From an uncultured Gammaproteobacteria bacterium (GTDB lineage: Bacteria > Patescibacteriota > Patescibacteriia > Magasanikbacterales > GWA2-37-8), in contig CAZXML010000001.1 of NCBI GenBank assembly GCA_964641245.1, forward strand, positions 45,065 to 109,064: DNA of 64,000 bases, given 5' to 3'. Positions 19,100-55,183 of this stretch are shown here, in pieces. The translations under genes and the position numbers were made by a program. Under the pieces are notes generated by a model. The model ran no database searches. It worked only from the letters and a program-made list of their open reading frames with translations, and was not told the origin of the DNA. Positions within the stretch are counted from its first letter, which is position 1; each line of letters begins with the position of its first letter.

Positions 19100-20383
19100 A
19101 TGCACAAAATTTCAAAGTTAAAAAACGGCATCAATCTTATCAAAATTCCTTTAAAAGGAAGCAAAGCCCTCACCGTCATGGCCATGTTTCCGGTTGGTTC
19201 GCGTTATGAAGACAAAAAACTTTCCGGCGCTTCGCATTTTGTGGAACACATGATGTTTAAGGGCACCAAAAAACGCCCCACTCATTTAGAAATTTCCCGC
19301 GAACTGGATTCCTTGGGCGCCGAATACAACGCCTTCACTTCCAAAGATTATACCGGTTATTATGTAAAAACCGGAGAAGTTAATACCGAAAAAGCTTTTG
19401 ACTGGCTGGCCGATATTATTTTTAATTCCAAAATGGACGCGGAGGAAATCGCCAAAGAAAAAGGTGTGATTGTGGAAGAATTACGGATGTATGAAGACAA
19501 TCCGTTGATGGCTGTAGATACTTTGTTTGAAAAAGCCATGTTTGGCGATCATCCGCTGGGCTGGGATGTGGGCGGTACCCCGGAAACCGTAAACGGTTTA
19601 AGCCGGGCTGATTTGTGGAATTATTATCAAAATTATTATTTACCCAGCAACATGGTTTTAATCGTGGCCGGCAATCTTAATGAAAAAAAACTGGCAAAAT
19701 CATTAAAACTTTTTGCGGCAGACAGGGCAAAAGATAGAAAGCATGATTTAAAAGCAAATTTTACCAAGTTTGTCTGGCCAAAAACCATTTTACCTTTGGA
19801 AAACAGAGTGGTAGTCTCCGAAAAAAAACTGGACCAGGCGCAGGTAATTCTTGGCTTTCCCGGGCTACATTATAATGACCCCGACCGTTTTGCCGCTTCG
19901 GTGTTATTCAATATTTTAGGCGGAGGCATGAGTTCCAGATTATTTGTGGAAGTGCGCGAAAAACGCGGCTTGGCCTATATGGTCAATGCCGGCGCCGGTT
20001 CATTCCGCGATGTCGGAGTGGCTAGTATTCAAGCCGGTTTGGATCCTTCCCGGCTAGCCGACGCTCTTAAAGTTATAAAAGACGAATTAATAAAAATAAC
20101 AAAAGAACCGGTTTCAGCTAAAGAATTATTGGATTCAAAAAATAATATTGCCGGACGAACCGAACTGGCCATGGAAGATTCCAGCGCGCAAGCTCAATGG
20201 TTTGCCAAACAATTTTGGTTTGCCAACAAAATAGAATCATACGACGAAGTGGTAAAACAAATTAAGCGCGTGACGGTCGCGGATGTAAAAAAGCTGGCCA
20301 AAAAATTATTTGATTTAAATCAAATGCGCGTGGCCGTAATCGGCCCGATGAGCAGAGAAAAAGTTTTGGATTTACTAAAGTAA
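19100..20383 (+). CDS. M16 (pitrilysin/insulinase) family zinc peptidase
   Basis: Inverted zinc motif HFVEHMMFKGT (HxxEH). About 430 aa with a two-domain M16 architecture. Confidence 0.75.
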   Translation: MHKISKLKNGINLIKIPLKGSKALTVMAMFPVGSRYEDKKLSGASHFVEHMMFKGTKKRPTHLEISRELDSLGAEYNAFTSKDYTGYYVKTGEVNTEKAFDWLADIIFNSKMDAEEIAKEKGVIVEELRMYEDNPLMAVDTLFEKAMFGDHPLGWDVGGTPETVNGLSRADLWNYYQNYYLPSNMVLIVAGNLNEKKLAKSLKLFAADRAKDRKHDLKANFTKFVWPKTILPLENRVVVSEKKLDQAQVILGFPGLHYNDPDRFAASVLFNILGGGMSSRLFVEVREKRGLAYMVNAGAGSFRDVGVASIQAGLDPSRLADALKVIKDELIKITKEPVSAKELLDSKNNIAGRTELAMEDSSAQAQWFAKQFWFANKIESYDEVVKQIKRVTVADVKKLAKKLFDLNQMRVAVIGPMSREKVLDLLK

Positions 20384-20393
20384 CCTATATTTC

Positions 20394-20524
20394 TGTCATC
20401 CCCCCGACCCATTAATTGTCATTCTGAGCAAAGCGAAGAATCTCTGTCCGTTCGGCGATTGAGACAGAGATCCTTCACTGCGTTCAGGATGACAGTTGGC
20501 GCAAGACTCGCTCGGAATGACAAA
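20394..20524. repeat. Cluster of a TGTCATCC fragment, a family-A element and a partial GAATGACA terminus
   Basis: CTGTCATCCCCCCGACC, then the full A element 20417-20494, then CTCGGAATGACA. Confidence 0.75.
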
Positions 20525-20535
20525 CGCACAAACAT

Positions 20536-21288
20536 ATGAATAATAAAAAAATCTACCTATTCGCCAACTGGAAAATGTACCTGGATTACGATGAAAGTAA
20601 TATTTTAGCGAACGCTATTGCTGATAAGAAAAAAATTATTCCAAAATCCGTAAAAATGGCAATTTTCCCAAGCGCTTTGTCGCTTTATCCTGTGGGGCAG
20701 GTTTTGCATGATGCCGGCATTAGTGTTGGCGCGCAAAATACATATTGGTTAGACAAAGGTGGGTACACCGGTGAAGTGTCAGCCGTCATGTACAACGAAG
20801 CCGGATGTGAGTATGCTTTAACTGGTCATTCCGAACGCAGGCACTTGTTTCACGAAACCAACGATGAGGTGCGTAAAAAAGTAGAAGCAATTTTATCTGC
20901 GGGATTAACTCCGGTTATTTGCGTTGGCGAAACTGAAAAAGAACGAAAAGAAAATAAATCCGACGAGGCCATTGAAATTCAAATCAGAGCCGCCTTTCAC
21001 AATATTGTCTGGCCAAAGGAACGGGAATTAATTGTGGCCTATGAACCGGTTTGGGCTATTGGCACCGGAGAAAATTGCGATCCGATTGAAGCCGAACGGA
21101 TGCATGAACTGATCAAAAAACAAATTATCGCGTTAACCGGCATCACTCCCGTTATTTTATATGGAGGCAGTATCAATCCCAAAAATATTGCCGGATATTT
21201 AAAAAATCCGAACATAAACGGCGTATTGGTCGGTAGCGCGTCGGCTAATTATGAAAGCTGGATGGAAATTATATCTAATAGTTTTTAA
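20536..21288 (+). CDS. tpiA: Triosephosphate isomerase
   Basis: FANWKM, GHSERR, AYEPVWAIGTG and YGGS motifs. Confidence 0.9.
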   Translation: MNNKKIYLFANWKMYLDYDESNILANAIADKKKIIPKSVKMAIFPSALSLYPVGQVLHDAGISVGAQNTYWLDKGGYTGEVSAVMYNEAGCEYALTGHSERRHLFHETNDEVRKKVEAILSAGLTPVICVGETEKERKENKSDEAIEIQIRAAFHNIVWPKERELIVAYEPVWAIGTGENCDPIEAERMHELIKKQIIALTGITPVILYGGSINPKNIAGYLKNPNINGVLVGSASANYESWMEIISNSF

Positions 21289-21289
21289 T

Positions 21290-21435
21290 TGTCATTCTGA
21301 GCAAAGCGAAGAATCTCTGTCCGCATATTGTCATTCCCGCCCGAGAGCGGGAATCCAGACAATTCAACCGGACACTGGATTCCCAATCAAGTTGGGAATG
21401 ACAGACAGAGATCCTTCACTGCGTTCAGGATGACA
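21290..21435. repeat. Nested elements: a family-D palindrome (TGTCATTCCCGC...GGGAATGACA, 21339-21404) inserted inside a family-A element
   Basis: The A left half is at 21290-21328 and the A right half at 21405-21435. They are interrupted by a complete D-type element. Confidence 0.8.
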
Positions 21436-21471
21436 ATCTAATTCAAGTTTGTTCCGATTAAAAGTAGTAGT

Positions 21472-22377
21472 ATGCTAAACGCATTATTTATAATAATCAT
21501 CATTGCCGCCCTCGCCGTTATTTTGTTTTTGGTTATCCGCAAATTTCCTCATCTGGCAAATTTGGATATTCAAAATCTGGACGAAGAAAAAATTTACCGC
21601 AAGAAAAAAGAAATTATAAATAAGCGCATAGAAAAAAGTAGCGGCCTTTTAAAAGAAAAAATTATCAGAAGTCTTGTGCCGGTCAGCAAATTGTGGGGAA
21701 GGCTTCAGCTCCAATTTAGAATATATGTGGGAAAAATAGAAAGACTTCTTCATCATGAGCAGGTGCTTAAAACAAAACAAAAAAAGACTGTTGTCGGCAA
21801 CGAAGAGAGCGGACAAAAATTAACTTCCTTAATTCAGGAAGGCGAACAGCAGTTAAAAGCGGGCAATTACGATAAAGCCGAAGAAGTTTTTATCTCCGCC
21901 ATAAAAATTGACCCGAAATCTGCGGTCGCTTATAGAGGATTAGGCGATACCTATTTGGCCAAAAATTCTCTGGAGGAAGCCAGACAGACTTATAAATTTT
22001 TAATCAGAATGGAACCGGACGACGATAATGTGTTGGTCAAATTGGCGGAAATAGCGGAAAGCCATGGCGATCTGGAAGAGGCGATACATCATTACCAGCA
22101 GGCGGTTTTGGTCAATGATTCATTTTCCCCGCGTTTTTATCACTTGGCCGAACTGCTGGTAAAGGTGGGCCAACCGCAGGTGGCGGTAGAATCTATTCTG
22201 CAGGCCGTAGAACTGGAACCCCAAAATCCAAAGTACCTTGACTTATTGATAGAAATTGCTATAATATGCGGCAATAAAGAGTTGGCGCTTAAAGGTTACG
22301 GAGAATTACGCTTAGTCAACCCCGACAATCAAAAATTACCCAGTTTCAAAGATAGAATTTATCGAATAGGCGTATAA
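21472..22377 (+). CDS. TPR-repeat protein with an N-terminal TM helix
   Basis: N-terminal hydrophobic segment. Repeated A..Y...G/A..Y...G TPR-like helices (AYRGLGDTYLAK, ARQTYKFLIRMEPDD). Confidence 0.6.
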   Translation: MLNALFIIIIIAALAVILFLVIRKFPHLANLDIQNLDEEKIYRKKKEIINKRIEKSSGLLKEKIIRSLVPVSKLWGRLQLQFRIYVGKIERLLHHEQVLKTKQKKTVVGNEESGQKLTSLIQEGEQQLKAGNYDKAEEVFISAIKIDPKSAVAYRGLGDTYLAKNSLEEARQTYKFLIRMEPDDDNVLVKLAEIAESHGDLEEAIHHYQQAVLVNDSFSPRFYHLAELLVKVGQPQVAVESILQAVELEPQNPKYLDLLIEIAIICGNKELALKGYGELRLVNPDNQKLPSFKDRIYRIGV

Positions 22378-22389
22378 GAAAAACGAAAT

Positions 22390-22424
22390 GCCGTCTTAGC
22401 TCAGCTGGTAGAGCAACAGTTTTG
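22390..22424 (+). pseudogene. 5' fragment (~35 nt) of a tRNA-Thr, fused to a double-hairpin element
   Basis: GCCGTCTTAGCTCAGCTGGTAGAGCAACAGTTTTG equals the acceptor, D-arm and half the anticodon stem of the downstream tRNA. It is followed by CCACCGCCCGCGGGCGGGGTGCCGCC, which also occurs in glyS. Confidence 0.6.
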
Positions 22425-22492
22425 CCACCGCCCGCGGGCGGGGTGCCGCCACGGGGCGGCATAAACTTCCAATGATTAAATAACAATTAAAC

Positions 22493-22568
22493 GCCGCCTT
22501 AGCTCAGCTGGTAGAGCAACACTTTTGTAAAGTGAAGGTCCTGGGTTCGAATCCCTGAGGCGGCTCCA
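22493..22568 (+). tRNA. tRNA-Thr (anticodon UGU), with CCA encoded
   Basis: Hand-folded cloverleaf. Acceptor GCCGCCT/AGGCGGC, D-arm GCTC-AGCTGGTA-GAGC, anticodon loop TTTGTAA, T-loop TTCGAAT. There is one U-U mismatch in the T-stem. Confidence 0.7.
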
Positions 22569-22632
22569 GATTAGGGGTTGTTCTTTGAAAATAAATAAGG
22601 TATAATGTAAGTGGCTATACGCCATTTAGTTT

Positions 22633-23241
22633 ATGCCTAATAAAAAAATTACAAAAGAACAGGAAGCCTTAGTAAAGAGTTTGTATTCTAGCGGAAAAAT
22701 GGGGTTGGAAATTGCCACTAAGTTAGAAATTTCTCTTAAACAAGTTTACGGTTCTCTCCGCCGTCAACAAATACCACGCAAGAGCTTACGTGAGCAAAAT
22801 AAAGTTCTTTTTGAGAGAAAGCCATTGTCGTTTCGTTTTAAGGAAAAACTCACAACAAAGGAACGTGAACTCCTGATTGCGGCGATTATGCTGTATTATG
22901 GCGAGGGCGCAAAAACATCTGTTACGGTTGATTTTGCGAATTCAGATGGTCGGACAGTTAAATTATTTTTAAAGTTTTTAAGGAAAATTTGTCGTATAGA
23001 CGAGAAGCGATTGCGGTTTTATTTGTACTGTTTTTCAGATCAAGATTCTAATTCTTTGATTAGTTATTGGTCGTCTCAATTGAAAGCTGAACGAAATCAA
23101 TTCACAAAACCATACGTGCGTTCAACTTTCAACAGAGGCAGTAGAGCAATGCCTTACGGAGTAATTCATGTGCGATATAGTGATAAGAAATTATTAGACA
23201 AAATTCTATCACTATGTAATAGTTTGGTCGTGTCGTTATAA
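22633..23241 (+). CDS. Hypothetical HTH protein, possibly a degenerate LAGLIDADG-like homing endonuclease
   Basis: N-terminal HTH (GLEIATKLEISLKQVYGSL). LIAAIMLYYGEGAK loosely resembles a LAGLIDADG motif. It lies between a tRNA and the tmRNA candidate. Confidence 0.3.
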   Translation: MPNKKITKEQEALVKSLYSSGKMGLEIATKLEISLKQVYGSLRRQQIPRKSLREQNKVLFERKPLSFRFKEKLTTKERELLIAAIMLYYGEGAKTSVTVDFANSDGRTVKLFLKFLRKICRIDEKRLRFYLYCFSDQDSNSLISYWSSQLKAERNQFTKPYVRSTFNRGSRAMPYGVIHVRYSDKKLLDKILSLCNSLVVSL

Positions 23242-23244
23242 AAT

Positions 23245-23527
23245 GGGTGGATTCCTGAGCGGTCAAAAGGGGCAGACTGTAGTAAAATGCAGCTCTTGAG
23301 GGAAACTTCAGGATGAACTTTCTGGGATAACGGTGAAAGCTAAGGCAGGTGCTATGCCAATACCGTGGGAACCCCGATATTTGGTCGGGGGCGCCGTAGA
23401 GACTAGATACCAGAGTGCCTAAAGTCAATGTGACTAAGGCAAAGATATAGTCCACGCCAGAAGGAAACTTTTGGATTAGTGAAATCTGCTGGCTCCGCCT
23501 TCGTAGGTTCGAATCCTACTCCACCCA
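23245..23527 (+). ncRNA. ssrA: Probable tmRNA (ssrA); the tRNA-like domain is clear but the tag ORF is not resolved
   Basis: The 5' GGGTGGA pairs with the 3' TCCACCC. A perfect T-arm GTAGG-TTCGAAT-CCTAC and a discriminator A follow. About 283 nt, with no ORF. Confidence 0.5.
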
Positions 23528-23614
23528 CACGGCTTCACTGCGTTACGCCGTGTAAACCACAGCTTCTACTGTGTTACACTATGTAAACTCAGTCTTGCCT
23601 AGGTACATAAAATT

Positions 23615-23881
23615 ATGCAACACTTTGTATATATCTTGAAATGTTGCGATGAGAGTTTTTATACAGGTTTAAGCAACAATCTTAAAAGAAGATTGAAAGA
23701 GCATGAGGATGGTAAAAGCGTTAATACAAAAAATTTGAGACCAGTTAAGTTAGTATTTTATTGCTGTTTTAAAGATCAGCATTTAGCTGCAGAATTTGAG
23801 CAATACTTAAAATCACATTCAGGAATTGCGTTTAGGAATAAACACTTAGCTACTACTACAAAACGCACAGTGAAGACATAG
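23615..23881 (+). CDS. GIY-YIG nuclease domain protein (UPF0213 / YhbQ-like)
   Basis: FVYILKC.DESFYTGLSNNLKRRLKEHEDGK is the classic GIY-YIG core. 88 aa. Confidence 0.8.
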   Translation: MQHFVYILKCCDESFYTGLSNNLKRRLKEHEDGKSVNTKNLRPVKLVFYCCFKDQHLAAEFEQYLKSHSGIAFRNKHLATTTKRTVKT

Positions 23882-23936
23882 CTTGCACTGGATAGTGTGA
23901 GAAGTAGCTTGCACTGCGTAGCCGTAGCGAAGCAGT

Positions 23937-24009
23937 GCCGTTGTAGCTCAGTTGGTAGAGCATTTCCATGGTAAGGAAAAGGTCTCGGGTTCGAATCCCG
24001 ACAACGGCT
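23937..24009 (+). tRNA. tRNA-Thr (anticodon GGU)
   Basis: Acceptor GCCGTTG/CAACGGC, D-arm GCTC-AGTTGGTA-GAGC, anticodon stem TTTCC/GGAAA with loop ATGGTAA, T-arm TCGGG-TTCGAAT-CCCGA. Confidence 0.75.
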
Positions 24010-24093
24010 CAACGCGTGAATCATGAAGCACGAATCATGAATCATGAACGTTACAAACAATCCCTAATTCTTAATTCGTAATTCATACACAAT

Positions 24094-24276
24094 ATGTCGC
24101 AGGATAATTTGGTGAAAATGGAATGCAAGGAATGTAAACACACGAACTATTTTACCAGCAAGAACAAGAAGGTTTTAAAGAACCGCTTGGAGCTGGAAAA
24201 GTTCTGTAAGTTTTGCCGAAAGCACACCGGTCACAAAGAAACAAAATAGAAATGAAAAAGCCCTGCTCTGAATAGT
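24094..24276 (+). CDS. rpmG: 50S ribosomal protein L33
   Basis: Hand translation gives [49 protein letters not shown]..., the L33 zinc-ribbon signature. It is absent from the supplied ORF track. The rpmG-tRNA-Trp arrangement is common. Confidence 0.7.
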
Positions 24277-24299
24277 TTTCCGGGTGGGGTTTGTTCTTA

Positions 24300-24371
24300 G
24301 GCCTGTAGTTTCAATGGTAAAACAGCGGTCTCCAAAACCGCGGTTCTCGGTTCGAATCCGAGCGGGCCTGC
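24300..24371 (+). tRNA. tRNA-Trp (anticodon CCA)
   Basis: Acceptor AGGCCTG/CGGGCCT, D-arm GTTT-CAATGGTA-AAAC, anticodon stem GCGGT/ACCGC with loop CTCCAAA, T-arm CTCGG-TTCGAAT-CCGAG. Confidence 0.75.
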
Positions 24372-24387
24372 AAAATAAATTCACTTT

Positions 24388-24834
24388 ATGCCGGAAATAG
24401 ATTTCTATCAAATTTCCTTGAAAGTTATTTTAAGGAATAAAAAAGGCGAGGTTTTAATTTTGAAAACACCTGAATATGGAAGTTATTCTGGTTGTTATGA
24501 TTTGCCGGGAGGCCGTATAGATGCAAACGAATTTGATGTTCCGTATGAGCAAATAATGAAACGGGAAATTACAGAGGAAGTGGGGGATATACAATATAAA
24601 TTTAATCCTAAACCGGTTGCGATTGGCCGTCATCTGGTGCATGCCCATCAAAGCAGGCTTAAGCGCGAACTTCATATTCAGTATATATTTTTTGAAGCGG
24701 AATATTTGGGAGGGGATATTTGCGTTAGCCGCGAGCATACAGAATATAAATGGGTGGATATGTCTGCTGAAAAATTAGAAGATTTATTTAAGTCCGGAAT
24801 TTTGGAAGGAATGAAGATGTGTTTCTTGGGTTAA
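24388..24834 (+). CDS. NUDIX hydrolase
   Basis: Nudix box GGRIDANEFDVPYEQIMKREITEEVG (Gx5Ex7REUxEExGU). Confidence 0.8.
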   Translation: MPEIDFYQISLKVILRNKKGEVLILKTPEYGSYSGCYDLPGGRIDANEFDVPYEQIMKREITEEVGDIQYKFNPKPVAIGRHLVHAHQSRLKRELHIQYIFFEAEYLGGDICVSREHTEYKWVDMSAEKLEDLFKSGILEGMKMCFLG

Positions 24835-24983
24835 TTTGGTTTTTTAGCTAATTAAGCCCCAAGTGCGTACCATAACGCCCGGCAAGGCGTGCCCCTTGAC
24901 CAGAAAGGCGCTTTAACGTAATATAGACCATTACAAAAGTCAGGTAATGTGGTACTATATAAATACTTATAATTAATAAGCGT

Positions 24984-25292
24984 ATGTTTAATAAATTATT
25001 CCGTTCGGTCTTTCCAGCGCGTAATCCGGCTGATATAGCGCGAGAATATAAAATCCCATCACAAATCCGTTTTAAGTTCCAGACTAAAGATGGTTGGATT
25101 ATTGCAACCTCTGAAAATTTGCCTGGTTTTATTACTGAAGCACGCAATCCGCAAGAATTGTTAGAAATGATTAACGACGGCATTTTAACGTACTTTGATG
25201 TTCCGCGGCGCGTAGGCGATGTTGTCCATAATCAAATGACACTTGACGGCTATGGGACTGTCTCGTTGGATAAACACTTGCAACCAGCTTAA
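24984..25292 (+). CDS. hicB: HicB-like antitoxin (UPF0150)
   Basis: DGWIIATSENLPGFITEARNPQELLEMINDGILTYFDV matches the HicB N-domain pattern. It is adjacent to HicA. Confidence 0.6.
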   Translation: MFNKLFRSVFPARNPADIAREYKIPSQIRFKFQTKDGWIIATSENLPGFITEARNPQELLEMINDGILTYFDVPRRVGDVVHNQMTLDGYGTVSLDKHLQPA

Positions 25293-25297
25293 ACACT

Positions 25298-25537
25298 ATG
25301 GGCGAAAATACCTTCAATCGCCGACAGTGTGTGCGGGCATTAAATAAGCTAAATTTTGTTCTTGATAACAAACGTTCTGGCAAGCACGATAAATACAAGG
25401 CACCGTTTGCCAATGCCAATCCGCCGTTTATTATGGTGCCTCGTCATAATGACATTCACTGTCAGGACGATATTGTAAAGGAATTGGAAAGAATGGGCGG
25501 GAAGGAACTGGTCGAAAAATTTAAGCAGTATTTGTAA
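25298..25537 (+). CDS. hicA: HicA-like mRNA interferase toxin
   Basis: RSGKHDKY...PPFIMVPRHNDI matches the HicA (YcfA) G-S/K-H...VP.H pattern. 79 aa. Confidence 0.6.
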   Translation: MGENTFNRRQCVRALNKLNFVLDNKRSGKHDKYKAPFANANPPFIMVPRHNDIHCQDDIVKELERMGGKELVEKFKQYL

Positions 25538-25676
25538 AAGCCTTTGTAAAGAGGTTTTTATTGTTTAGTTAAATTTTAATATACAGTGAGTAGTGCTAGG
25601 GAGTAAAGTCGGTATATAAACATACCGATTTGTCTTCATAAAAATAGTTCTAACGTCCTGTACGATGCCCTGCTAA

Positions 25677-25700
25677 GACCGGTTAAAACTGGTCTTTTTT
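25677..25700 (+). terminator. Rho-independent terminator
   Basis: GACCGGTTAAAACTGGTC hairpin followed by a T6 run. Confidence 0.6.
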
Positions 25701-25792
25701 GTATGTGAGTTGTTGGTCGCGAGCAGTAGATAAAAATAAACGGTCACCGAAATCACTACTCTAAATTCGGTAGGTTTCGGTAACATTTATTT

Positions 25793-26185
25793 TTGTCTAC
25801 AACGAGGGAGTTTTTTGTTATTAGACGATATGGTATAATATGTTATATGTCTATCATCATCCTACAACGTTTGTTATTGGACGCGGTACTGGATATTTTT
25901 TATTTCCCTATTTGGTGGTACACCAAAGGCGCGGCGCATGCTTTGCGCTGGTGTTTTAATTTATTAAAAACAGGAAACAAAAATCTGGCTCCGGGTTTGT
26001 GGCTGGCAAATTTATTTGTGCCCATGTTTGGGCAATTTGACTGGCAGGGGCGGATTGTCAGTTTTTTAATGCGTTTGGCGCAAATTTTTGCCCGTACGGT
26101 AGCGCTGGCCGTTTGGGTTAGTTTGTGTTTTGTTTTATTTTTAGGCTGGCTGGCATTGCCGGCGCTTGTTGCGTATGCAATTTAA
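25793..26185 (+). CDS. Small polytopic membrane protein (the start is probably downstream)
   Basis: Hydrophobic helices. Its 3' end overlaps the clpC-like ORF in another frame. Confidence 0.4.
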   Translation: MSTTREFFVIRRYGIICYMSIIILQRLLLDAVLDIFYFPIWWYTKGAAHALRWCFNLLKTGNKNLAPGLWLANLFVPMFGQFDWQGRIVSFLMRLAQIFARTVALAVWVSLCFVLFLGWLALPALVAYAI

Positions 26186-28940
26186 AAAAGCTGAACCATT
26201 AAATTTAATTTCCTGCGACCGTTGCCACGCAACCGGTTATATTGGGTTTGGCAAATGCCCGGAATGCAAGGGAATGGAAATGGGAATCAGCAAAAGGGGT
26301 AAATGGCTTTATTGGGATTATCCGCTTACCCGTTATAATTTATCTTTGCAAAGCGGACGGCGGATTTTAAACCGTATTCGTTTAATTACGGCGCTGGTTT
26401 TTTGGTTAACTTGTTGGATTTGGGTTGGAGTCACTGCCTACAAGGCAGATTTAGGCATTGTTTTTCGTGATCCCATTCATTGGCGTAATTTTATTTTAAC
26501 TTTGGGAAACAGCACCACCATTTTATTTTGGATGGGCGTAATCAGTTTATTTTATTTTTGGTACAGGATTATCCGGCAAAAAGAATTGGTGGGCGCGGTG
26601 GAAACTTTTAATTATGATGAAAAAAATAAAAAAGATTTAGTTGTTGGTTCCTGGGTTGACGCAAAAAAATTACCAAAGCGAAAAAAACATAATATCGCCG
26701 ACGCTTTTACCGAAGAGGCTTTATCCGCGCTGGCCAAGGCGTATCGTTTTGCTGATAAGAATGGCGCCAAAGAAGCAACTCCCGAACATTTATTTTATAC
26801 CCTGCTATCATTCAACAGAATCAGTAATATTTTTATCAGACTAGGCATTCCGGCTTCGTCACTACAAAAAGAATTGGTACCGTTGTTGCCAACCCACCCC
26901 AACCCCGCCCGAGCGGGGAATCGAGAAATGCCAACAGTGTCCAAAGATTTTCAACAAATTATTTTTCAGGCTTACGAATCGGCCTATAGCGCGCACCAGG
27001 ATTACGTTAGCGTCACCGAACTACTTATCATCGCCCTGCAGGAAACTCCGGCCATCGCCAAGGTTTTATTTAATTTTAATATCAGCGAACGTGATTTGGC
27101 AAATGTTATAGAGTGGGCCAGAATGCGCGAAAAACTTCACCGTCAATACCTCAAATTCAAACGGGCGGCCAGTCATCATTCCAAATACGGCATGGACAAA
27201 GCTATGACCGCGCTGGCCACTCCTTATTTAAATAGTTTCAGTTCCGACATTACCATGCTGGCGCATTACGGCCAGTTAAATCAATGCGTGGCCCGCTCCA
27301 AAGAAATAGAAGAAATTTATCAGGTTATAGACAGTGGTGAACACAATGTATTGCTGGTGGGGGAACATGGCGTCGGTAAAAAAACAATTGTGGAAGGCAT
27401 TGCGCAAAGCATGATAGAAGACGACGTGCCGGCCAGACTAAAAGACAAACGTTTGGTGCGTTTAAGTGTGTCGGCGCTGCTCGCCGGTACCAGTCCGGCC
27501 GGAGCGGTAGAAAGATTGCGGAATATAATGAACGAAATGTCGCGGGCGCGCAATGTAATTTTATTTATTCATAATTTACACGAACTGGTTGGCGTGGCGG
27601 CCGGCGAGAGCGGGAGTTTAGATATCGCGGACACCCTCACGGAATTTTTAGACAGTGATAAATTTTTAACCATCGCCACCACCACCACCGAAGATTTTTC
27701 GGAACATATTTCCAACTCTTCAATTAAAAGCGTGTTTACAAAAATAGATATTGCCGAGATGACCGAAGATCAGGCCATACAGGTTTTGGAATCGCGGGCG
27801 GGCGCGCTGGAGTATAAACAAAATGTATTTTTTTCTTACGATGCCGTGGCCAAAGCCGTGGAATACGCCGTTAAATTTATTCACGAATCATTTTTGCCAG
27901 GAAACGCTTTGGAACTTCTTACCGAATCCGCCACTTATACTCACAATAAAAAAGGCGGTAATTCCATCGTCACCAAAGAAGAAGTGGCGGCGGTAGTGAC
28001 CGAAAAAACCAAAATTCCTTTGTCCGCTATTTCCAGTGATGAATCCAGCAAACTCTTACTTTTAGAAGAAGAAATGCATGAACGCGTGATTGGCCAGGAT
28101 GAGGGCGTAACCGCCGTCGCCAATGCTTTGCGCCGGGCCCGCGCCGAAATGCGTTCGTCCAAACGGCCCATCGCCAACTTTTTATTTTTGGGCCCCACCG
28201 GCGTAGGCAAAACCGAACTTGCCAAAACCATCGCCCAAGTGTACTTTGGAGGTGAAAACAAAATGATTCGCCTAGACATGAGCGAGTATCAGGACAAGAG
28301 CAGTATATATAGGTTGATTGGCATGCCCGGAGCCAAAGGAACCGGCATACTTACCGAGGCTGTCCGCCGGAGTCCGTTTTCTCTTTTATTGCTGGATGAA
28401 ATAGAAAAAGCCGACCATGATGTGCTGAATTTATTTCTGCAGGTTATGGATGAAGGCCGGCTTAGCGACAGCGCCGGACACGTATTTGATTTTACCAATG
28501 TAATTTTAATCGCCACATCCAATGCCGGTACGGCCTATGTGCAAGAACAAAATAAAAAAGGCGTGGCGCACGAAGTTTTGCTGGACAGTCTTTTGCACGG
28601 AGAATTGAAAGAATATTTCCGCCCGGAATTTTTAAATCGTTTTGACGGAATTATTTTGTTCAACGCCTTAACCCAGCCGGATATTAAAAAAATCGCCGGT
28701 TTAATGTTTGGCGCTATTGCCAAAAGCATGGAACAAAAAGGCGTGCAGTTGACGGCCACAGACGATGCCCTGGAATTTTTGGCCACCGCCGGTTTTGATC
28801 CGGAATTTGGCGCTCGGCCGATGCGCCGGGTTTTGCAGGAAAAAGTAGAAAATAAACTGGCAGAATTATTTTTACAGGGAAAATTAAAAAGAGGCAGTAT
28901 GGTGACGGTCGGGGCGGGAGGAGAGATAAATGTAAATTAA
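26166..28940 (+). CDS. ClpC/ClpA-like double AAA+ unfoldase with an N-terminal zinc ribbon and two TM helices
   Basis: CDRCHATGYIGFGKCPECKG zinc ribbon, then TM segments, then Clp_N. D1 Walker A LLVGEHGVGKKT. D2 Walker A FLGPTGVGKTELAK. Sensor-2 GARPMRRV. Confidence 0.8.
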   Translation: MLRMQFKKAEPLNLISCDRCHATGYIGFGKCPECKGMEMGISKRGKWLYWDYPLTRYNLSLQSGRRILNRIRLITALVFWLTCWIWVGVTAYKADLGIVFRDPIHWRNFILTLGNSTTILFWMGVISLFYFWYRIIRQKELVGAVETFNYDEKNKKDLVVGSWVDAKKLPKRKKHNIADAFTEEALSALAKAYRFADKNGAKEATPEHLFYTLLSFNRISNIFIRLGIPASSLQKELVPLLPTHPNPARAGNREMPTVSKDFQQIIFQAYESAYSAHQDYVSVTELLIIALQETPAIAKVLFNFNISERDLANVIEWARMREKLHRQYLKFKRAASHHSKYGMDKAMTALATPYLNSFSSDITMLAHYGQLNQCVARSKEIEEIYQVIDSGEHNVLLVGEHGVGKKTIVEGIAQSMIEDDVPARLKDKRLVRLSVSALLAGTSPAGAVERLRNIMNEMSRARNVILFIHNLHELVGVAAGESGSLDIADTLTEFLDSDKFLTIATTTTEDFSEHISNSSIKSVFTKIDIAEMTEDQAIQVLESRAGALEYKQNVFFSYDAVAKAVEYAVKFIHESFLPGNALELLTESATYTHNKKGGNSIVTKEEVAAVVTEKTKIPLSAISSDESSKLLLLEEEMHERVIGQDEGVTAVANALRRARAEMRSSKRPIANFLFLGPTGVGKTELAKTIAQVYFGGENKMIRLDMSEYQDKSSIYRLIGMPGAKGTGILTEAVRRSPFSLLLLDEIEKADHDVLNLFLQVMDEGRLSDSAGHVFDFTNVILIATSNAGTAYVQEQNKKGVAHEVLLDSLLHGELKEYFRPEFLNRFDGIILFNALTQPDIKKIAGLMFGAIAKSMEQKGVQLTATDDALEFLATAGFDPEFGARPMRRVLQEKVENKLAELFLQGKLKRGSMVTVGAGGEINVN

Positions 28941-37660: not shown

Positions 37661-39658
37661 TTGTCGTTTAGCTCTCTCATTTCGATTATGGAACCAAGCG
37701 AAAAAGAACCGGACATTATAGGCAACCCGGATGTCAACTATTTTGCCACCACCAATTTTCGCAATAAAAACCGGAAATTTGGCATAAAGCTGGACGATCG
37801 CCGCCGGCATTTATATGTTGTGGGCAAAACGGGTATGGGCAAAACCACCATGTTAGAAAACATGGTTCTTAATGATATCTACGCGGGGCACGGCGTGGGA
37901 GTGGTAGATCCGCACGGCGATTTTGCCGAAAAAATTATAGATTATATTCCGGCTAATCGCATTAACGACGTGGTTTATTTTAATCCGTCCGATATTGATT
38001 TTCCAATCGGTTTTAATATTTTAGAAAGCATAGATCCGCGCTACCGCCATTTGGTGGCATCCGGACTTATGGGCGTTTTCAAAAAAATCTGGCCGGATGT
38101 GTGGAGCGCGCGCATGGAATACATTTTAAACAACACTCTTTTGGCCTTGCTGGAATTTCCCAACACCACCCTGCTAGGCATCAACCGACTGCTGGCCGAC
38201 AACGCTTACCGCAAACGCGTCATTAAAAATTTAAAAGATCCTGTTATCCGTTCATTCTGGGAAACGGAATTTGCCGGTTATAACGACCGCTATAAACAGG
38301 AAGCGGTCGCTCCGGTACAAAATAAAATCGGTCAATTTTTGTCGGCTTCGGTTATCCGCAACATTGTGGCGCAGACAAAATCGCGCATCAACATCCGCGA
38401 AATCATGGACACCAAGAAAATTTTTATCATGAACTTATCCAAAGGCAGAATCGGCGAAGATAATTCCCGGTTGCTGGGTGGTATGCTTATCACCAAAATT
38501 CAATTGGCGGCCATGGAAAGAGTAGACACTCCGGAAAAAGACCGCAAAGATTTTTTTCTTTATGTAGATGAATTTCAAAATTTTGCCACGGAAAGTTTTT
38601 CCAACATTTTATCCGAAGCGCGCAAATACCGGTTAGACTTAACCATGGCGCACCAATATATGGAGCAGTTGGATGAAACCGTGCTGGCCGCGGTAATTGG
38701 TAACGTGGGTACGCTGGTAACATTCCGGGTGGGTTCTACGGATGCGGAAATTCTGGCCAAAGAATTCGCGCCTACTTTTATAGAAACCGATTTGGTTAAT
38801 TTAACAAAATTTCAAATTTATTTAAAATTAATGATAGACGGCGTTGCTTCACAGCCTTTTTCCGCCAACACTTTATCGCCGATAAATATTTCCACCCATA
38901 GCACAGAAAAAGTTATTAAAGTTTCCCGCGAACGCTACGCCACCAGCCGGGAAAATATAGAAGACAAAATTATGCGTTGGACCGGTATGGAAGCCGGCGG
39001 AACGGGGGATACCGATGTAGACGAGGACGATGAAAATTACGGCGAGGATGAAGAGGGTATGCCGGTTTTGTTAGATAAGATGGTTGCTCCACCAATGGTG
39101 CCGGTTGCTCCAAAAGCTCCGACTCCGTCTGCTGTAAAAAAACTCCCGATTCTGACTCCGAGTCAGAATCGAGGATCCTCGATTTTGCCCGAACGCAAAA
39201 TCGGGACAACCCCTCCGCCGGTCAAAAAATCAGAACCCGCTCCGGTTAAATCAGACATAAAAGACAGTCAGCCGATTTCATTGGTGGATACAAGTCAAAA
39301 GGGGATAAGTTTGTCGCAAGCAGTACAAACTAACAAACAACCTGTTAAAGTAGAGAAAAAACACGAACATAAACCGGTGCAGGTGAGTCAGACGGTTCCT
39401 AAACAAGCGACAAATGCCAACCCACCCCTACCCAGACGCCTCCCGACCGCGGTCGAGGATCCTCGATTCTCGAGAATCGGGACAAGCGGGGAATTGCCAA
39501 AACCGCCAGCGCCACCGGCGACACCGGCGTCGGTAATTCCGCCTAAACCTTTACCAATAAATCAAACAGAGAAAAAGATTTTCCCGGATAAAATTGTCCA
39601 CATAGACGATGACACGGATAATGGCCTGCCTGCCGGCAGGCAGGTTGACAAAAATTAA
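37661..39658 (+). CDS. TraD/VirD4/HerA-like P-loop NTPase with a Pro-rich low-complexity C-terminus that contains repeat-element insertions
   Basis: Walker A VVGKTGMGKTT, Walker B FFLYVDEFQNF, and an AHQYMEQL motif. The C-terminal 250 aa are P/K-rich with embedded CGAGGATCCTCG and CCTGCCTGCCGGCAGGCAGG hairpins. Confidence 0.5.
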   Translation: MSFSSLISIMEPSEKEPDIIGNPDVNYFATTNFRNKNRKFGIKLDDRRRHLYVVGKTGMGKTTMLENMVLNDIYAGHGVGVVDPHGDFAEKIIDYIPANRINDVVYFNPSDIDFPIGFNILESIDPRYRHLVASGLMGVFKKIWPDVWSARMEYILNNTLLALLEFPNTTLLGINRLLADNAYRKRVIKNLKDPVIRSFWETEFAGYNDRYKQEAVAPVQNKIGQFLSASVIRNIVAQTKSRINIREIMDTKKIFIMNLSKGRIGEDNSRLLGGMLITKIQLAAMERVDTPEKDRKDFFLYVDEFQNFATESFSNILSEARKYRLDLTMAHQYMEQLDETVLAAVIGNVGTLVTFRVGSTDAEILAKEFAPTFIETDLVNLTKFQIYLKLMIDGVASQPFSANTLSPINISTHSTEKVIKVSRERYATSRENIEDKIMRWTGMEAGGTGDTDVDEDDENYGEDEEGMPVLLDKMVAPPMVPVAPKAPTPSAVKKLPILTPSQNRGSSILPERKIGTTPPPVKKSEPAPVKSDIKDSQPISLVDTSQKGISLSQAVQTNKQPVKVEKKHEHKPVQVSQTVPKQATNANPPLPRRLPTAVEDPRFSRIGTSGELPKPPAPPATPASVIPPKPLPINQTEKKIFPDKIVHIDDDTDNGLPAGRQVDKN

Positions 39659-40706: not shown

Positions 40707-41948
40707 ATGTCCAAAGCAAATAAAAAAATAAAGGTTTTGTGTACCATGAGTGGCGGGGTGGATTCCTCGGTTGCCTCGGCTCTTTTGGTTGCCCAAGGCT
40801 ATGATGTTACTGGCGCATTCATGGTCAATTACGACGAAATTGGCCCGCAAGGCGAATCCTGCTGGACTAGTGATTATCAAGACGCTCTGCGGGTGGCGGC
40901 CAAGCTGGGCATACCGCTGATGCGTTTGGATTTTGTAAAAGAATATAAAAAAACCGTTTTGGATTATATGTATGAGGAGTACCGGAAAGGCAGAACGCCG
41001 AACCCGGATGTTTTGTGTAATAAGTTTGTAAAGTTTGGCGTGTGGTTGGAAAAGGCGAAGGAGTTGGGGTTTGATAAGCTCGCAACAGGTCACTACGCGC
41101 GTCTCGCAAATTCCCCGCTTGGGCCTGCCTGCCGGCAGGCAGGCGGGGTAAGGGGTGGGTTGGCGTTAATGGAAGCGATGGATGCCAACAAAGACCAAAC
41201 CTATTTTTTACACCAATTAAATCAGGAACAATTAAAATTCGTTTTATTTCCTATCGGAGAATACACCAAGCCCCAAGTTAGAAAATTGGCCAAAAAATTC
41301 AATTTACCAAATGCCGACAAGGAAGAAAGCATGGGAATTTGTTTTGTGGGCGAAGTGCCAATGAAAGAATTTTTATTGAAAAAAATTAAGGCGAAAAAAG
41401 GGAAAATTATTTTAAGTACTGGTGAACAAATTGGCGTGCACGATGGTCTGCCTTTTTATACTATCGGACAGCGCCAAGGCCTTCGGACGTCTTGTCATTC
41501 TGAACGGAGTGAAGAATCTCTGTCTCAATCGTCAAACGGACAGAGATCCTTCGCTGGCACTCAGGATGACAATACGCGACCGCTTTACGTTCTTGCTAAA
41601 AATTTTGAGAAAAACGAATTGGTAGTCGGCTACGAAGACGATCCGTTATTATATAAAAAAACCGCCGAAGTGTCGGAGGTAAATTGGGTAAGCGGGCAAC
41701 CACCGAAATTTCCCTTAAATTGCGAAGTCCGTTTGCGTCATCGACAATCACTGCAAAAGTGCCTCGTTGATTCCCCGCTTGTCCCGATTCTCGAGAATCG
41801 TGGATCCCGACTCACTGTCGGGAGGCGGTCTACGGGTAGGGGTGGGTTGGCCATTAAATTTTCCAAACCTCAACGCGCGGTAACCCCCGGCCAATTTGCT
41901 GTCTTCTATAAAAAAGGTGAATGTCTTGGCGGTGGAATAATAAACTAA
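40707..41948 (+). CDS. mnmA: tRNA-specific 2-thiouridylase MnmA carrying three in-frame palindromic-element insertions
   Basis: PP-loop CTMSGGVDSSVA and the conserved MnmA core. It is 413 aa against about 360 typical. Extra segments are encoded at 41107-41165, 41493-41571 (family A) and 41770-41855. Confidence 0.85.
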   Translation: MSKANKKIKVLCTMSGGVDSSVASALLVAQGYDVTGAFMVNYDEIGPQGESCWTSDYQDALRVAAKLGIPLMRLDFVKEYKKTVLDYMYEEYRKGRTPNPDVLCNKFVKFGVWLEKAKELGFDKLATGHYARLANSPLGPACRQAGGVRGGLALMEAMDANKDQTYFLHQLNQEQLKFVLFPIGEYTKPQVRKLAKKFNLPNADKEESMGICFVGEVPMKEFLLKKIKAKKGKIILSTGEQIGVHDGLPFYTIGQRQGLRTSCHSERSEESLSQSSNGQRSFAGTQDDNTRPLYVLAKNFEKNELVVGYEDDPLLYKKTAEVSEVNWVSGQPPKFPLNCEVRLRHRQSLQKCLVDSPLVPILENRGSRLTVGRRSTGRGGLAIKFSKPQRAVTPGQFAVFYKKGECLGGGIIN

Positions 41949-55013: not shown

Positions 55014-55183
55014 AACAAAAAAGCCCCTTGCGGGGAGGTAGCCTTATAGATTTGTGATGCCTAGATTATAGCCAACCGATGGATGGGAACATCTAGAACA
55101 ATCTACAAAGGACTTATACCTGACTCTAGAATACAGCTTTTTAACCTAAATGTCAATAGTTATCCACAGGTCATTTTATGCCT

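Follow-up and report, generated by a model that had tools for sequence, protein, structure and literature searches.

Is the small GIY-YIG nuclease gene that lies between two tRNA genes of an uncultured bacterium a resident of its operon, or is it part of a mobile element that has settled there? The gene is located in a DNA stretch of 64,000 nucleotides, referred to here as the window (contig CAZXML010000001.1 of assembly GCA_964641245.1, from an organism filed as a Gammaproteobacteria bacterium and placed by GTDB in the Patescibacteriota). It occupies the spacer between tRNA-Tyr(GUA) and tRNA-Thr(GGU) of a tRNA operon. A first-pass annotation of the window had called an open reading frame (ORF) of 88 amino acids (aa) of the GIY-YIG type at this position, and the call is borne out by a match to Pfam PF01541 of 57.2 bits (cut-off 22.6; E 2.1e-15) that covers residues 2-69. 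On balance, and in part by analogy, the locus probably represents a selfish mini-cassette of ~350-410 bp, composed of an SLX1/UPF0213-type nuclease gene and one signature hairpin at each end in opposite orientation, that colonizes the flanks of tRNA and transfer-messenger RNA (tmRNA) genes as phage T4 SegB does; this answer is held with moderate confidence. Its mobile, selfish character is supported by the empty, filled, and remnant states of the Tyr-Thr(GGU) site in relatives, by displaced tRNA ends, and by the protein identities observed across phyla.

The ORF is framed by repeats. Upstream, Tandem Repeats Finder (TRF) identified a period of 31 nt in 2.0 copies with an 80% match and a score of 80, and downstream two repeats at 23874-23895 and 23900-23921 (repeat family D2) are spaced by 26 nt with an identity of 82%. 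Tandem units of ~27 nt had been proposed for both flanks; the repeats are indeed present on both sides, but with units of 31 and 26 nt. The exact core pattern that had been read into them is not enriched, with five matches in the window and at least five in four of 100 shuffles. Direct local alignment of the two flanks (GCTT-CACTGCGTTACGCCGT versus GCTTGCACTGCG-TA-GCCGT) gave a score of 24, as compared to 13.6 ± 2.3 for dinucleotide shuffles, with four of 2000 shuffles reaching 24 or more. The inverted alignment gave a score of 23 (shuffles 15.4 ± 2.7; 23 or more in 40 of 2000). The two flanks are related beyond chance, as the first-pass annotation had claimed, but the relationship is not only that of a direct repeat: what they share is one hairpin motif in inverted orientation.

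The signature hairpin is imperfect and consists of a 6-7-bp stem, the word CG(A/T)AGC, a loop or an inner hairpin, the word GCGAAG, and the complementary stem. A covariance model, R1, was built on 33 hairpins of unrelated loci in other phyla, with the close relatives of the window excluded. When run over the full 64 kb with filters off, R1 returned only two matches with E < 0.01, one at each end of the cassette and oppositely oriented; no further signature hairpin was found in the window at that threshold. The right hairpin is the top match (35 bits, E 3.6e-7) and the sole match of the window to a regular expression for the motif. Its sequence reads GCACTG-CGTAGC-CGTA-GCGAAG-CAGTGC, the 3' arm taking in the first two bases of tRNA-Thr(GGU), and its DNA fold has an energy of -9.6 kcal/mol (z -2.9), with none of 200 shuffles equally stable. 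The left hairpin (19.6 bits, E 0.007) carries the signature motif on the minus strand. Along the plus strand it reads CACGG-CTTCAC-TGC-GTTACG-CCGTG, beginning 1-2 nt past the discriminator base of tRNA-Tyr, and its DNA fold is -6.8 kcal/mol (z -2.1).

That the hairpins abut both tRNAs to the nucleotide was discarded as evidence, since the empty spacer itself measures 1-5 nt. The notion that the tRNA-adjoining hairpin is a plain mimic of an acceptor stem was also ruled out, because its arm forms pairs with the discriminator base and CC, a segment that stays unpaired in a tRNA. A search of Rfam 15 over window positions 20000-27000 at E <= 1 returned only the tRNAs, an intron, and a chance-level match to MIR1444 (E 0.81) elsewhere in that stretch, with no family for the flanking hairpins. 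Over the spacers of 11 loci of the wider family described below, Rfam gave no family either, only a sub-threshold sX4 match that spans a tRNA-Ser and its spacer.

Inside the hairpins, the ORF is bracketed by a short word, (T)AGCTTGC(C/A), which stands ~12 nt ahead of the ATG and recurs at the stop codon (23879-23887 / 23905-23913). Its upstream form, CTTGCCTAG, resembles TAGCTTGCA at the stop codon and is common to all four carriers of the cassette discussed below, while the 12-15 nt between CTTGCCTAG and the ATG vary. Near-identical GC-rich palindromes (TGCCTGCCG...GGCAGG) occur at window positions 39623-39646 and 41122-41145, ~1.5 kb apart. They give weak R1 matches (E 0.3-0.7), lack the motif core, and are probably an unrelated repeat or terminators.

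The history of the spacer was read from close relatives. Metagenome contigs were scanned with the 29-nt 3' end of the tRNA-Tyr from the window, which yielded 38 loci that were then oriented (loci are given here by L numbers). In the relatives compared, the 3' half of tRNA-Tyr and tRNA-Thr(GGU) are the same or nearly so. An identical protein is encoded on three contigs with the same layout. The spacer is empty in L098 (5 nt, CAATC), L113 (about 1-4 nt), and L092 (14 nt), and it is filled by the cassette in the window, L118, L112, and L122, where the latter three proteins are 90-92% identical to that of the window. In L101, an ORF-less remnant of 116 nt contains the left hairpin, the word TAAAC, a relic of the start codon (ATTATGC), and right-end hairpins. 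The gene is therefore present or absent at a conserved site among relatives, as for a homing endonuclease, and the spacer comparison that had been suggested for this locus turns out in favor of an insert.

The number of units differs among the carriers. There is one upstream unit in L118, two in the window, and three in L112 and L122, whereas the downstream unit is doubled in the window and single in L118. The minimal form is thus provided by L118, which combines a single upstream unit with a single hairpin placed right behind the stop codon. Because the carriers differ in this manner, the tandem units represent terminal hairpins that were expanded in individual lineages. Although the ORF has a synonymous divergence (dS) of ~0.3, the window, L118, L112, and L122 share exactly the same 30 nt immediately behind tRNA-Tyr, and the four do not differ in the stem or the motif of the right hairpin. 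The ratio of nonsynonymous to synonymous divergence (dN/dS) of the ORF against the other three carriers is 0.08-0.12. Given a dN/dS of ~0.1 and a hairpin stem and motif that are invariant at dS values of 0.29-0.39, both the protein and the two hairpins are, as judged from sequence, maintained by purifying selection.

Strong purifying selection would also be expected of a resident housekeeping gene, for example one that acts on tRNA or in repair and is merely located in tRNA operons, with the hairpins serving as RNA-level terminators, processing signals, or stabilizers and with nothing mobile. The ORF has no promoter of its own in the window, and inheritance in this lineage has long been vertical, both of which agree with such a gene. 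Across the tRNA cluster no plus-strand sigma-70-like promoter was found except for one weak match inside the end of a 202-aa ORF, and no plus-strand terminator-like site was found. Because the cluster shows no promoter-like or terminator-like site belonging to the ORF, its expression probably relies on transcripts that read through the tRNA operon. What a resident gene does not readily accommodate is the presence, the absence, and the ORF-less remnant at one and the same site, or the patchy distribution.

Several further insertions and duplications were observed near the tRNA-Tyr gene of these bacteria. In L106 and L120, the Tyr-Thr(GGU) spacer holds a ~40-nt GC-rich hairpin insert (TTCCGCCAGAGGCGAACCCGCCTTTGGCGGGGGTAT) between a 16-nt duplication of the 5' end of tRNA-Thr(GGU), a third kind of insertion in this spacer. 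In L108, L115, and L116, two copies of the final 29 nt of tRNA-Tyr are found at a distance of 107 nt, and partial tRNA-Tyr-like 3' ends lie downstream of the gene in L095 and L097. In these bacteria, duplication appears to have struck the 3' half of tRNA-Tyr repeatedly. The signature hairpin also occurs flush with the 5' end of tRNA-Thr(UGU) in L112 and L118, more than 600 nt from any GIY-YIG gene; the stem in L112 is GCACTG/CAGTGC, as at the right end of the cassette. From these lone copies it follows that the hairpin module can occur on its own. In another relative, P0003, whose GIY-YIG protein is 82% identical, the gene begins 271 nt after the gene for a tetratricopeptide repeat (TPR) protein, a distance that would accommodate two intronless tRNAs but not a spacer ORF. 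The GIY-YIG gene of P0003 is followed by a gene for a 23S_rRNA_IVP (four-helix-bundle) protein, a gene type often carried by inserts.

The same gene and hairpin recur well outside these relatives. One genome per species was scanned with one peptide pattern, and the best 80 of 552 matches, with 88 gene copies, were taken as the family sample; its loci come from Bacteroidota, Patescibacteria, Alphaproteobacteria, and Gammaproteobacteria. A co-oriented tRNA or tmRNA gene ends upstream within 250 nt of 54 of the 88 genes and within 400 nt of 66. A tRNA within 250 nt downstream is observed for only six of the 88, several of the rest being too near a contig end to judge. The upstream genes encode tRNA-Ser (several isoacceptors), Ala(GGC), Tyr, Val, Gly, Thr, Lys, Gln, Met, Glu, Trp, and Arg, as well as tmRNA; the first GIY-YIG copy of L040 follows a tmRNA that is seen by Rfam only. 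Chance cannot explain this adjacency, because at most one gene per tRNA, and hence a few percent of genes, can hold that position. A relative of 67% identity is located between tRNA-Met and tRNA-Gly. Protein identity across phyla amounts to 68-72%, and proteins encoded beside different tRNAs, such as Ala(GGC) and Arg(CCU), are 75-80% identical. The cassette is present in tandem copies in L051, L059, and L044. Cross-phylum identities of this order in a non-essential protein of 80 aa, together with tandem copies, are difficult to reconcile with a gene that merely resides in tRNA operons.

The hairpins follow the gene. A regular expression combined with a stem check found 69 instances in 468 kb, 66 of which lie within 400 nt of a GIY-YIG gene. 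With R1, 112 matches at E <= 0.05 were obtained over L010-L089, nearly all beside the ORF, and at least one in about 69 of the 80 loci. Compensatory changes are seen in six of the seven outer stem pairs, and the words CG(A/T)AGC and GCGAAG are almost invariant. Hairpins stand at both ends of the cassette in the window, L118, L129, L013, L018, L045, and L036, and their arrangement around the ORF varies among the loci of the family. In the viral contig L129, hairpins lie 8 nt ahead of the ATG and 3 nt past the stop codon, with no tRNA nearby, in the same layout as in the window and L118. In many loci the stem beside the tRNA makes use of the last bases of the tRNA itself. The spacer holds a complement to the 3' junction of its own tRNA (a 6-nt pairing spanning the junction) in 38 of 68 loci, as compared to 14.8% for foreign junctions; an exact 7-nt complement of the tRNA end was found in the spacers of two of the 68 loci, which is the chance level.

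In the Bacteroidota, the first hairpin and the run of T behind it resemble an intrinsic terminator, as would suit hairpins acting at the RNA level for a resident gene. Relative to the gene, however, the motif strand is antisense in 30 of 77 hairpins and sense in 47. Moreover, in both orientation classes the G:T wobbles fall on the purine-rich motif strand (16 versus 2 and 16 versus 3, in related sequences), which suggests that the motif strand is the strand that folds. Since the folding strand is often antisense to the tRNA and the ORF, single-stranded or cruciform DNA is favored over a sense RNA. When these observations are taken with the displaced tRNA ends described below, we regard a resident, immobile gene as highly unlikely.

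A folding DNA strand calls to mind a hairpin-ended element of the transposon type, in which the SLX1-like nuclease would read the folded purine-rich hairpin strand and hairpin-like T-arm DNA by structure and would excise or insert the cassette by way of single-stranded or cruciform intermediates, as in IS200/IS605 insertion sequences or repetitive extragenic palindromes and their associated tyrosine transposases (REP/RAYT), but with GIY-YIG chemistry. The use of both hairpin orientations, the strand bias of the wobbles, the strong conservation of the motif with covarying stems, and the presence of hairpins at both cassette ends all agree with such an element, as do the inclusion of abutting tRNA bases in the stems and the occurrence of the structure-specific SLX1 among the closest solved relatives. 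There is also a general likeness: the REP/RAYT and IS200/IS605 systems likewise combine imperfect GC-rich palindromes, a conserved core with GTAG-like words, and one small nuclease gene, with an apparently strand-specific signal. Those systems, however, employ tyrosine nucleases of the HUH type, and REPs are dispersed genome-wide, whereas here the enzyme is of the GIY-YIG type, the hairpins lie within roughly 400 nt of the gene, and 64 kb contain a single pair, both members at the cassette; the locus is thus not a member of either group. No regular target duplication is seen, the hairpin arrangement around the ORF differs between loci, an 80-aa nuclease has no evident strand-joining activity, and the wobble statistic was built on related sequences. 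In addition, we know of no GIY-YIG transposase of this kind. A transposon-like element in this sense is considered unlikely.

Displaced tRNA ends supply a further line of evidence for mobility. Exact copies of at least 12 nt of the 3' end of the upstream tRNA are found after the GIY-YIG stop codon in nine of 70 loci, as compared to a mean of 0.7 and a maximum of 2 in permuted controls. They are positioned 31-125 nt past the stop codon, start in either the T-loop or the T-stem's 3' strand, and continue as far as the tRNA 3' terminus. Longer displaced copies are 63 nt in L072, 82 nt in L034, and a whole tandem unit in L051. The insert between the tRNA repeats is the roughly 450-bp cassette only and is free of recombinases.

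Such repeats recall the islands that tyrosine integrases carry into tRNA and tmRNA genes, together with their integrase-less derivatives: in both cases the insert is located at the 3' end of the gene, that end is made whole again, and a partial copy of it lies displaced beyond the insert. The cassette might accordingly be a miniature integrative element, namely a deletion derivative of a tRNA-integrating island that is moved in trans by a tyrosine integrase encoded elsewhere, with the GIY-YIG gene as cargo. Direct repeats of 13-22 nt that extend from the T-loop or T-stem to the tRNA 3' end match the classic integrase sublocations in tRNA and tmRNA genes reportedly described by Williams in 2002, and the 3' ends of tRNA and tmRNA genes are the usual bacterial attachment (attB) sites. 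Yet no integrase lies between the repeats; the insert of ~0.4 kb in the window holds one 88-aa GIY-YIG ORF, a nuclease but no recombinase. The repeats are irregular, with lengths of 13 to 82 nt that at times take in the whole spacer (L034, L072, L051), and they are missing from most loci, including the window and L118. It is also hard to explain for arbitrary cargo why a unit of ORF plus hairpin recurs in four phyla beside at least 12 tRNA species. An integrase-driven derivative is therefore considered highly unlikely, on a par with the resident gene.

The properties of the enzyme bear on how a nuclease cassette would move. The AlphaFold2 model consists of one GIY-YIG domain of 78 residues with a predicted local distance difference test (pLDDT) score of 91, followed by residues 79-88, which are disordered, consistent with a reading frame that extends into the structured flank. 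The order of the secondary structural elements is beta-beta-alpha-beta-alpha-alpha, as in its UPF0213 and SLX1 relatives. Residues Y16, G18, R26, H30, and E62 are invariant in 28 family members, with V5 and Y6 nearly so; the catalytic roles of these seven residues are assumed from the GIY-YIG superfamily. By profile against the PDB, the closest solved relatives are 1zg2 (BH0048; E 1.7e-19), 1ywl (EF2693; E 5.6e-12), and SLX1 chains (1e-6 to 1e-4). The protein thus groups with the UPF0213 / SLX1-URI clade, in having UPF0213 and SLX1 nuclease domains as its nearest relatives and a catalytic domain alone. A second, DNA-binding domain of the sort found in homing endonucleases was absent from the Pfam and NCBIfam results and from the AlphaFold2 model. 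The match to TIGR01453 reached only 17.6 bits as compared to a cut-off of 56, NCBIfam contains no specific model, the PADLOC defence models gave no match, and no further GIY-YIG copies were found elsewhere in the 64-kb window. The UPF0213 entries 1zg2 and 1ywl were deposited as hypothetical proteins without a functional assignment. The cassette subfamily has its own C-terminal motif, YLKS(G/H)SGIAFRNK. SLX1 differs in possessing an added C-terminal domain and in acting together with SLX4. We know of no report that links UPF0213 or SLX1 proteins to tRNA genes or to hairpins.

Among known systems, T4 SegB offers the closest comparison to the proposed cassette. It contains a DNA-binding region besides the catalytic domain, whereas the 88-aa protein is a catalytic domain only, of the SLX1/UPF0213 clade. 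To our knowledge, SegB has no signature hairpin motif, whereas the cassette family does. SegB is furthermore a phage protein and a homing endonuclease, while the present family is chromosomal in at least four bacterial phyla. The likenesses are threefold. In both cases a GIY-YIG nuclease gene lies between tRNA genes and is present or absent among relatives. The 27-bp site of SegB, a homing endonuclease of a phage tRNA cluster, holds a conserved T-psi-C stem-loop motif (PMC2330249), and the displaced tRNA copies of the cassette family begin in the T-loop or T-stem. Finally, SegB has been reported to drive segmental amplification in the T4 tRNA cluster (PMC13096335), and such local amplification parallels the tandem units of the cassette.

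A second comparison is provided by an organelle. A mobile GIY-YIG ORF in the mitochondrial atp6 gene of Allomyces, attributed to Paquin et al. in 1994, reportedly brings a replacement 3' end for the gene that it invades. As with the cassette, a nuclease ORF stands at the 3' end of an essential gene, a new 3' end is supplied, and the old one is left downstream. The host gene in that case, however, encodes a protein and belongs to an organelle, and that element is without the hairpin motif.

For the mode of movement of the cassette we infer, by analogy, the following route. The nuclease would break a tRNA or tmRNA gene that lacks the cassette, in or beside the gene, as SegB does. Repair of the break from a carrier would then bring in the cassette and, along with it, a replacement 3' end for the tRNA. 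Where homology is confined to one side, the original end would stay behind as a displaced copy that begins near the break, and a one-sided repair of this kind fits those displaced copies whose start lies in the T-loop. The local tandem duplications (one, two, or three units) could also result from breaks and slippage at the hairpins. The transcript of the ORF would arise by read-through of the tRNA operon and be freed by tRNA processing. The hairpins may serve as cis-acting ends of the element that fold as single-stranded or cruciform DNA, a plausible target for a structure-specific SLX1-like nuclease. A broader version of this proposal, which we put forward as tentative and rather doubtful, would have UPF0213/SLX1-like mini-nucleases with the YLKSGSGIAFRNK tail and CG(A/T)AGC...GCGAAG hairpins constitute a distinct, widespread class of autonomous micro-elements of ~0.4 kb, which insert without a recombinase at the 3' boundary of tRNA and tmRNA genes and whose structure-specific nuclease reads folded DNA (its own terminal hairpins and the palindromic T-arm) instead of a long sequence.

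Several points weigh against a selfish cassette that homes in the manner of SegB. The protein of 88 aa is a single folded domain without the DNA-binding domain of the characterized GIY-YIG homing endonucleases SegB and I-TevI, and because that domain is missing, sequence-specific cleavage by the protein alone is not expected. Neither a target duplication nor a displaced 3' end of tRNA-Tyr was found in the window, the only match to the latter being the T-loop of the next tRNA. Among the four carriers, dS amounts to ~0.3-0.4; the cassette is consequently old and long vertically inherited in the lineage of the window, and it may no longer be moving. Hairpins also occur without the ORF, in L101 and 5' of tRNA-Thr(UGU) in L112 and L118, such that the hairpins could be the mobile or functional part. 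Tyrosine integrases, too, leave direct repeats that extend from the T-loop to the tRNA 3' end. As for the statistics, the family sample is limited to the best 80 of 552 matches to one peptide pattern, and the hairpin instances were pre-selected for pairing and come in many cases from related loci, so that the covariation and wobble statistics are inflated and the percentage paired is not independent. The first-pass annotation had proposed a mobile cassette that homed at its tRNA site. A small mobile cassette in a tRNA spacer is upheld by the presence and absence of the insert and by the same gene family and hairpin 3' of tRNA and tmRNA genes across phyla; the homing is a matter of inference, in a locus that is old here (dS 0.29-0.39) and shows no target duplication.

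Given in Table 1 are the features of the tRNA cluster. The gene order is that of a TPR protein gene, tRNA-Thr(UGU), the 202-aa ORF, an intron-split tRNA-Tyr(GUA), the GIY-YIG cassette, tRNA-Thr(GGU), rpmG, and tRNA-Trp.

Table 1. Features of the tRNA cluster that houses the GIY-YIG cassette (window coordinates).
Feature	Position	Strand	Basis
tRNA-Thr(UGU), first gene of the tRNA operon	22493..22568	+	ARAGORN; Rfam tRNA, 65.7 bits
tRNA-Tyr(GUA) 5' exon, last base U35	23245..23280	+	ARAGORN on spliced sequence and with -i
Group I intron, 201 nt, no ORF, in tRNA-Tyr anticodon loop	23281..23481	+	Rfam RF00028
tRNA-Tyr(GUA) 3' exon	23482..23527	+	ARAGORN
Left terminal hairpin of cassette	23526..23554	-	Covariance model R1; DNA fold
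Two tandem 31-nt units; the first holds the left hairpin, the second is a degenerate copy	23528..23588	+	TRF
Conserved word CTTGCCTAG, 12 nt ahead of ATG	23594..23602	+	Conservation in four carriers
GIY-YIG nuclease ORF, 88 aa, single catalytic domain, UPF0213 / SLX1-URI type	23615..23881	+	Pfam PF01541
Two tandem 26-nt units (TAGCTTGCACTG...) from the stop codon on; the second runs into the right hairpin	23874..23921	+	Repeat search
Right terminal hairpin, canonical motif copy	23910..23939	+	Covariance model R1; DNA fold
tRNA-Thr(GGU)	23937..24010	+	ARAGORN; Rfam, 72.9 bits
rpmG (ribosomal protein L33), next gene of the cluster	24094..24249	+	Pfam PF00471, E 2e-17
tRNA-Trp(CCA), end of the cluster	24299..24371	+	ARAGORN

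The tRNA-Thr(GGU) gene named in the first-pass annotation is confirmed, but its second neighbor, a tmRNA, is not: neither ARAGORN nor Rfam detects a tmRNA at 23245-23527. That region is instead a tRNA-Tyr(GUA) interrupted between positions 35 and 36 by a group I intron (Rfam RF00028 at 23270-23474, 50.5 bits as compared to a gathering score of 50). The split gene escapes ARAGORN in its default mode but is called both on the spliced sequence (83 nt) and with the intron option -i, as i(37,201). Upon removal of the intron, a tRNA of 82-83 nt with the 7-nt anticodon loop CUGUAAA remains. As is typical of group I introns, the 5' exon ends in ...CUGU, the intron ends in ...AGUG, and the spliced product folds as a tRNA. 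The local annotation is corrected accordingly: an intron-split tRNA-Tyr, of a kind that default tRNA finders miss, had been taken for a tmRNA. The intron is polymorphic: the window, L104, L106/L120, L111, and L048 have it, and L098, L118, L112, L122, and L101 lack it. A strict tie between the 202-aa ORF and the intron was ruled out, since L107 has a homologue of the ORF beside an intronless tRNA-Tyr. The names given to homologues of the 202-aa ORF point to the Patescibacteria as the probable group of the organism in the window. Introns at position 35/36 of tRNA-Tyr(GUA) in Patescibacteria are already known, and most tRNA introns of these bacteria are without endonuclease genes (PMC13011429). 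The endonuclease search in that paper was restricted to ORFs inside introns, and a text search of it finds mention of neither GIY-YIG nor hairpins.

Additional features of the neighborhood were noted. Just upstream of the intact tRNA-Thr(UGU), at 22390-22424, is a displaced 5' half of tRNA-Thr(UGU) that is identical at 33 of 35 nt and whose end lies within the anticodon. Next comes a GC-rich double hairpin, CCACCGCCCGCGGGCGGGGTGCCGCCACGGGGCGGCATAAAC, and the two together span 22390-22466. The same CCACCGCCCGCGGGCGGGGTGCCGCCACGGGGCGGCATAAAC-type module is found in L094 and L126, 3' of tRNA-Tyr and ahead of a displaced tRNA-Tyr 3' half that begins at the insertion point of the intron. The displaced 5' half and the double hairpin in the window look like the scar of another element, one that targets anticodon loops. 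Between tRNA-Thr(GGU) and rpmG are two tandem arrays of 7-nt units, TGAATCA x4.6 (24017-24048) and TAATTCG x2.9 (24065-24084); L122 has a different repeat in this place. Just downstream of the tRNA cluster, at 24984-25537 (+), a 102-aa ORF is followed by a 79-aa ORF. The latter has a faint HicA_toxin match in the annotation of L001, and the two may be a toxin-antitoxin pair of the HicAB type. A DUF3800-V RNA match (Rfam) lies at 55031-55128 (-), with 53.6 bits as compared to a gathering score of 37.4.

What is known already at this locus is the 35/36 intron of tRNA-Tyr. What is new is the free-standing, tRNA-targeting nuclease cassette with its unusual single-domain enzyme and its signature hairpin, which is apparently undescribed: a literature search for GIY-YIG genes beside bacterial tRNA or tmRNA genes, or for this hairpin, found nothing, with coverage that was incomplete and leaves room for a prior description. 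The analysis provides a testable rule, namely that a single-domain GIY-YIG subfamily, annotated only as hypothetical proteins or putative endonucleases, lies directly behind tRNA and tmRNA genes in Bacteroidota, Patescibacteria, Alphaproteobacteria, and Gammaproteobacteria, accompanied by a conserved hairpin with covarying stems. If mobile, the cassettes would be among the smallest autonomous elements of bacteria and would exemplify a recombinase-free route to tRNA genes. The hairpins are a candidate substrate for the bacterial SLX1/UPF0213 proteins and would be their first natural one if the broader micro-element proposal is correct. In that case, breaks in neighboring tRNA genes could also explain the movement of ORF-less tRNA introns and of other spacer ORFs in Patescibacteria. 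At least four kinds of selfish inserts use the Thr-Tyr-Thr tRNA operon of these bacteria as a landing site, namely a group I intron, a helix-turn-helix (HTH)-LAGLIDADG ORF, a PD-(D/E)XK ORF, and the GIY-YIG cassette, which bears on how the many ORF-less tRNA introns of the Patescibacteria spread.

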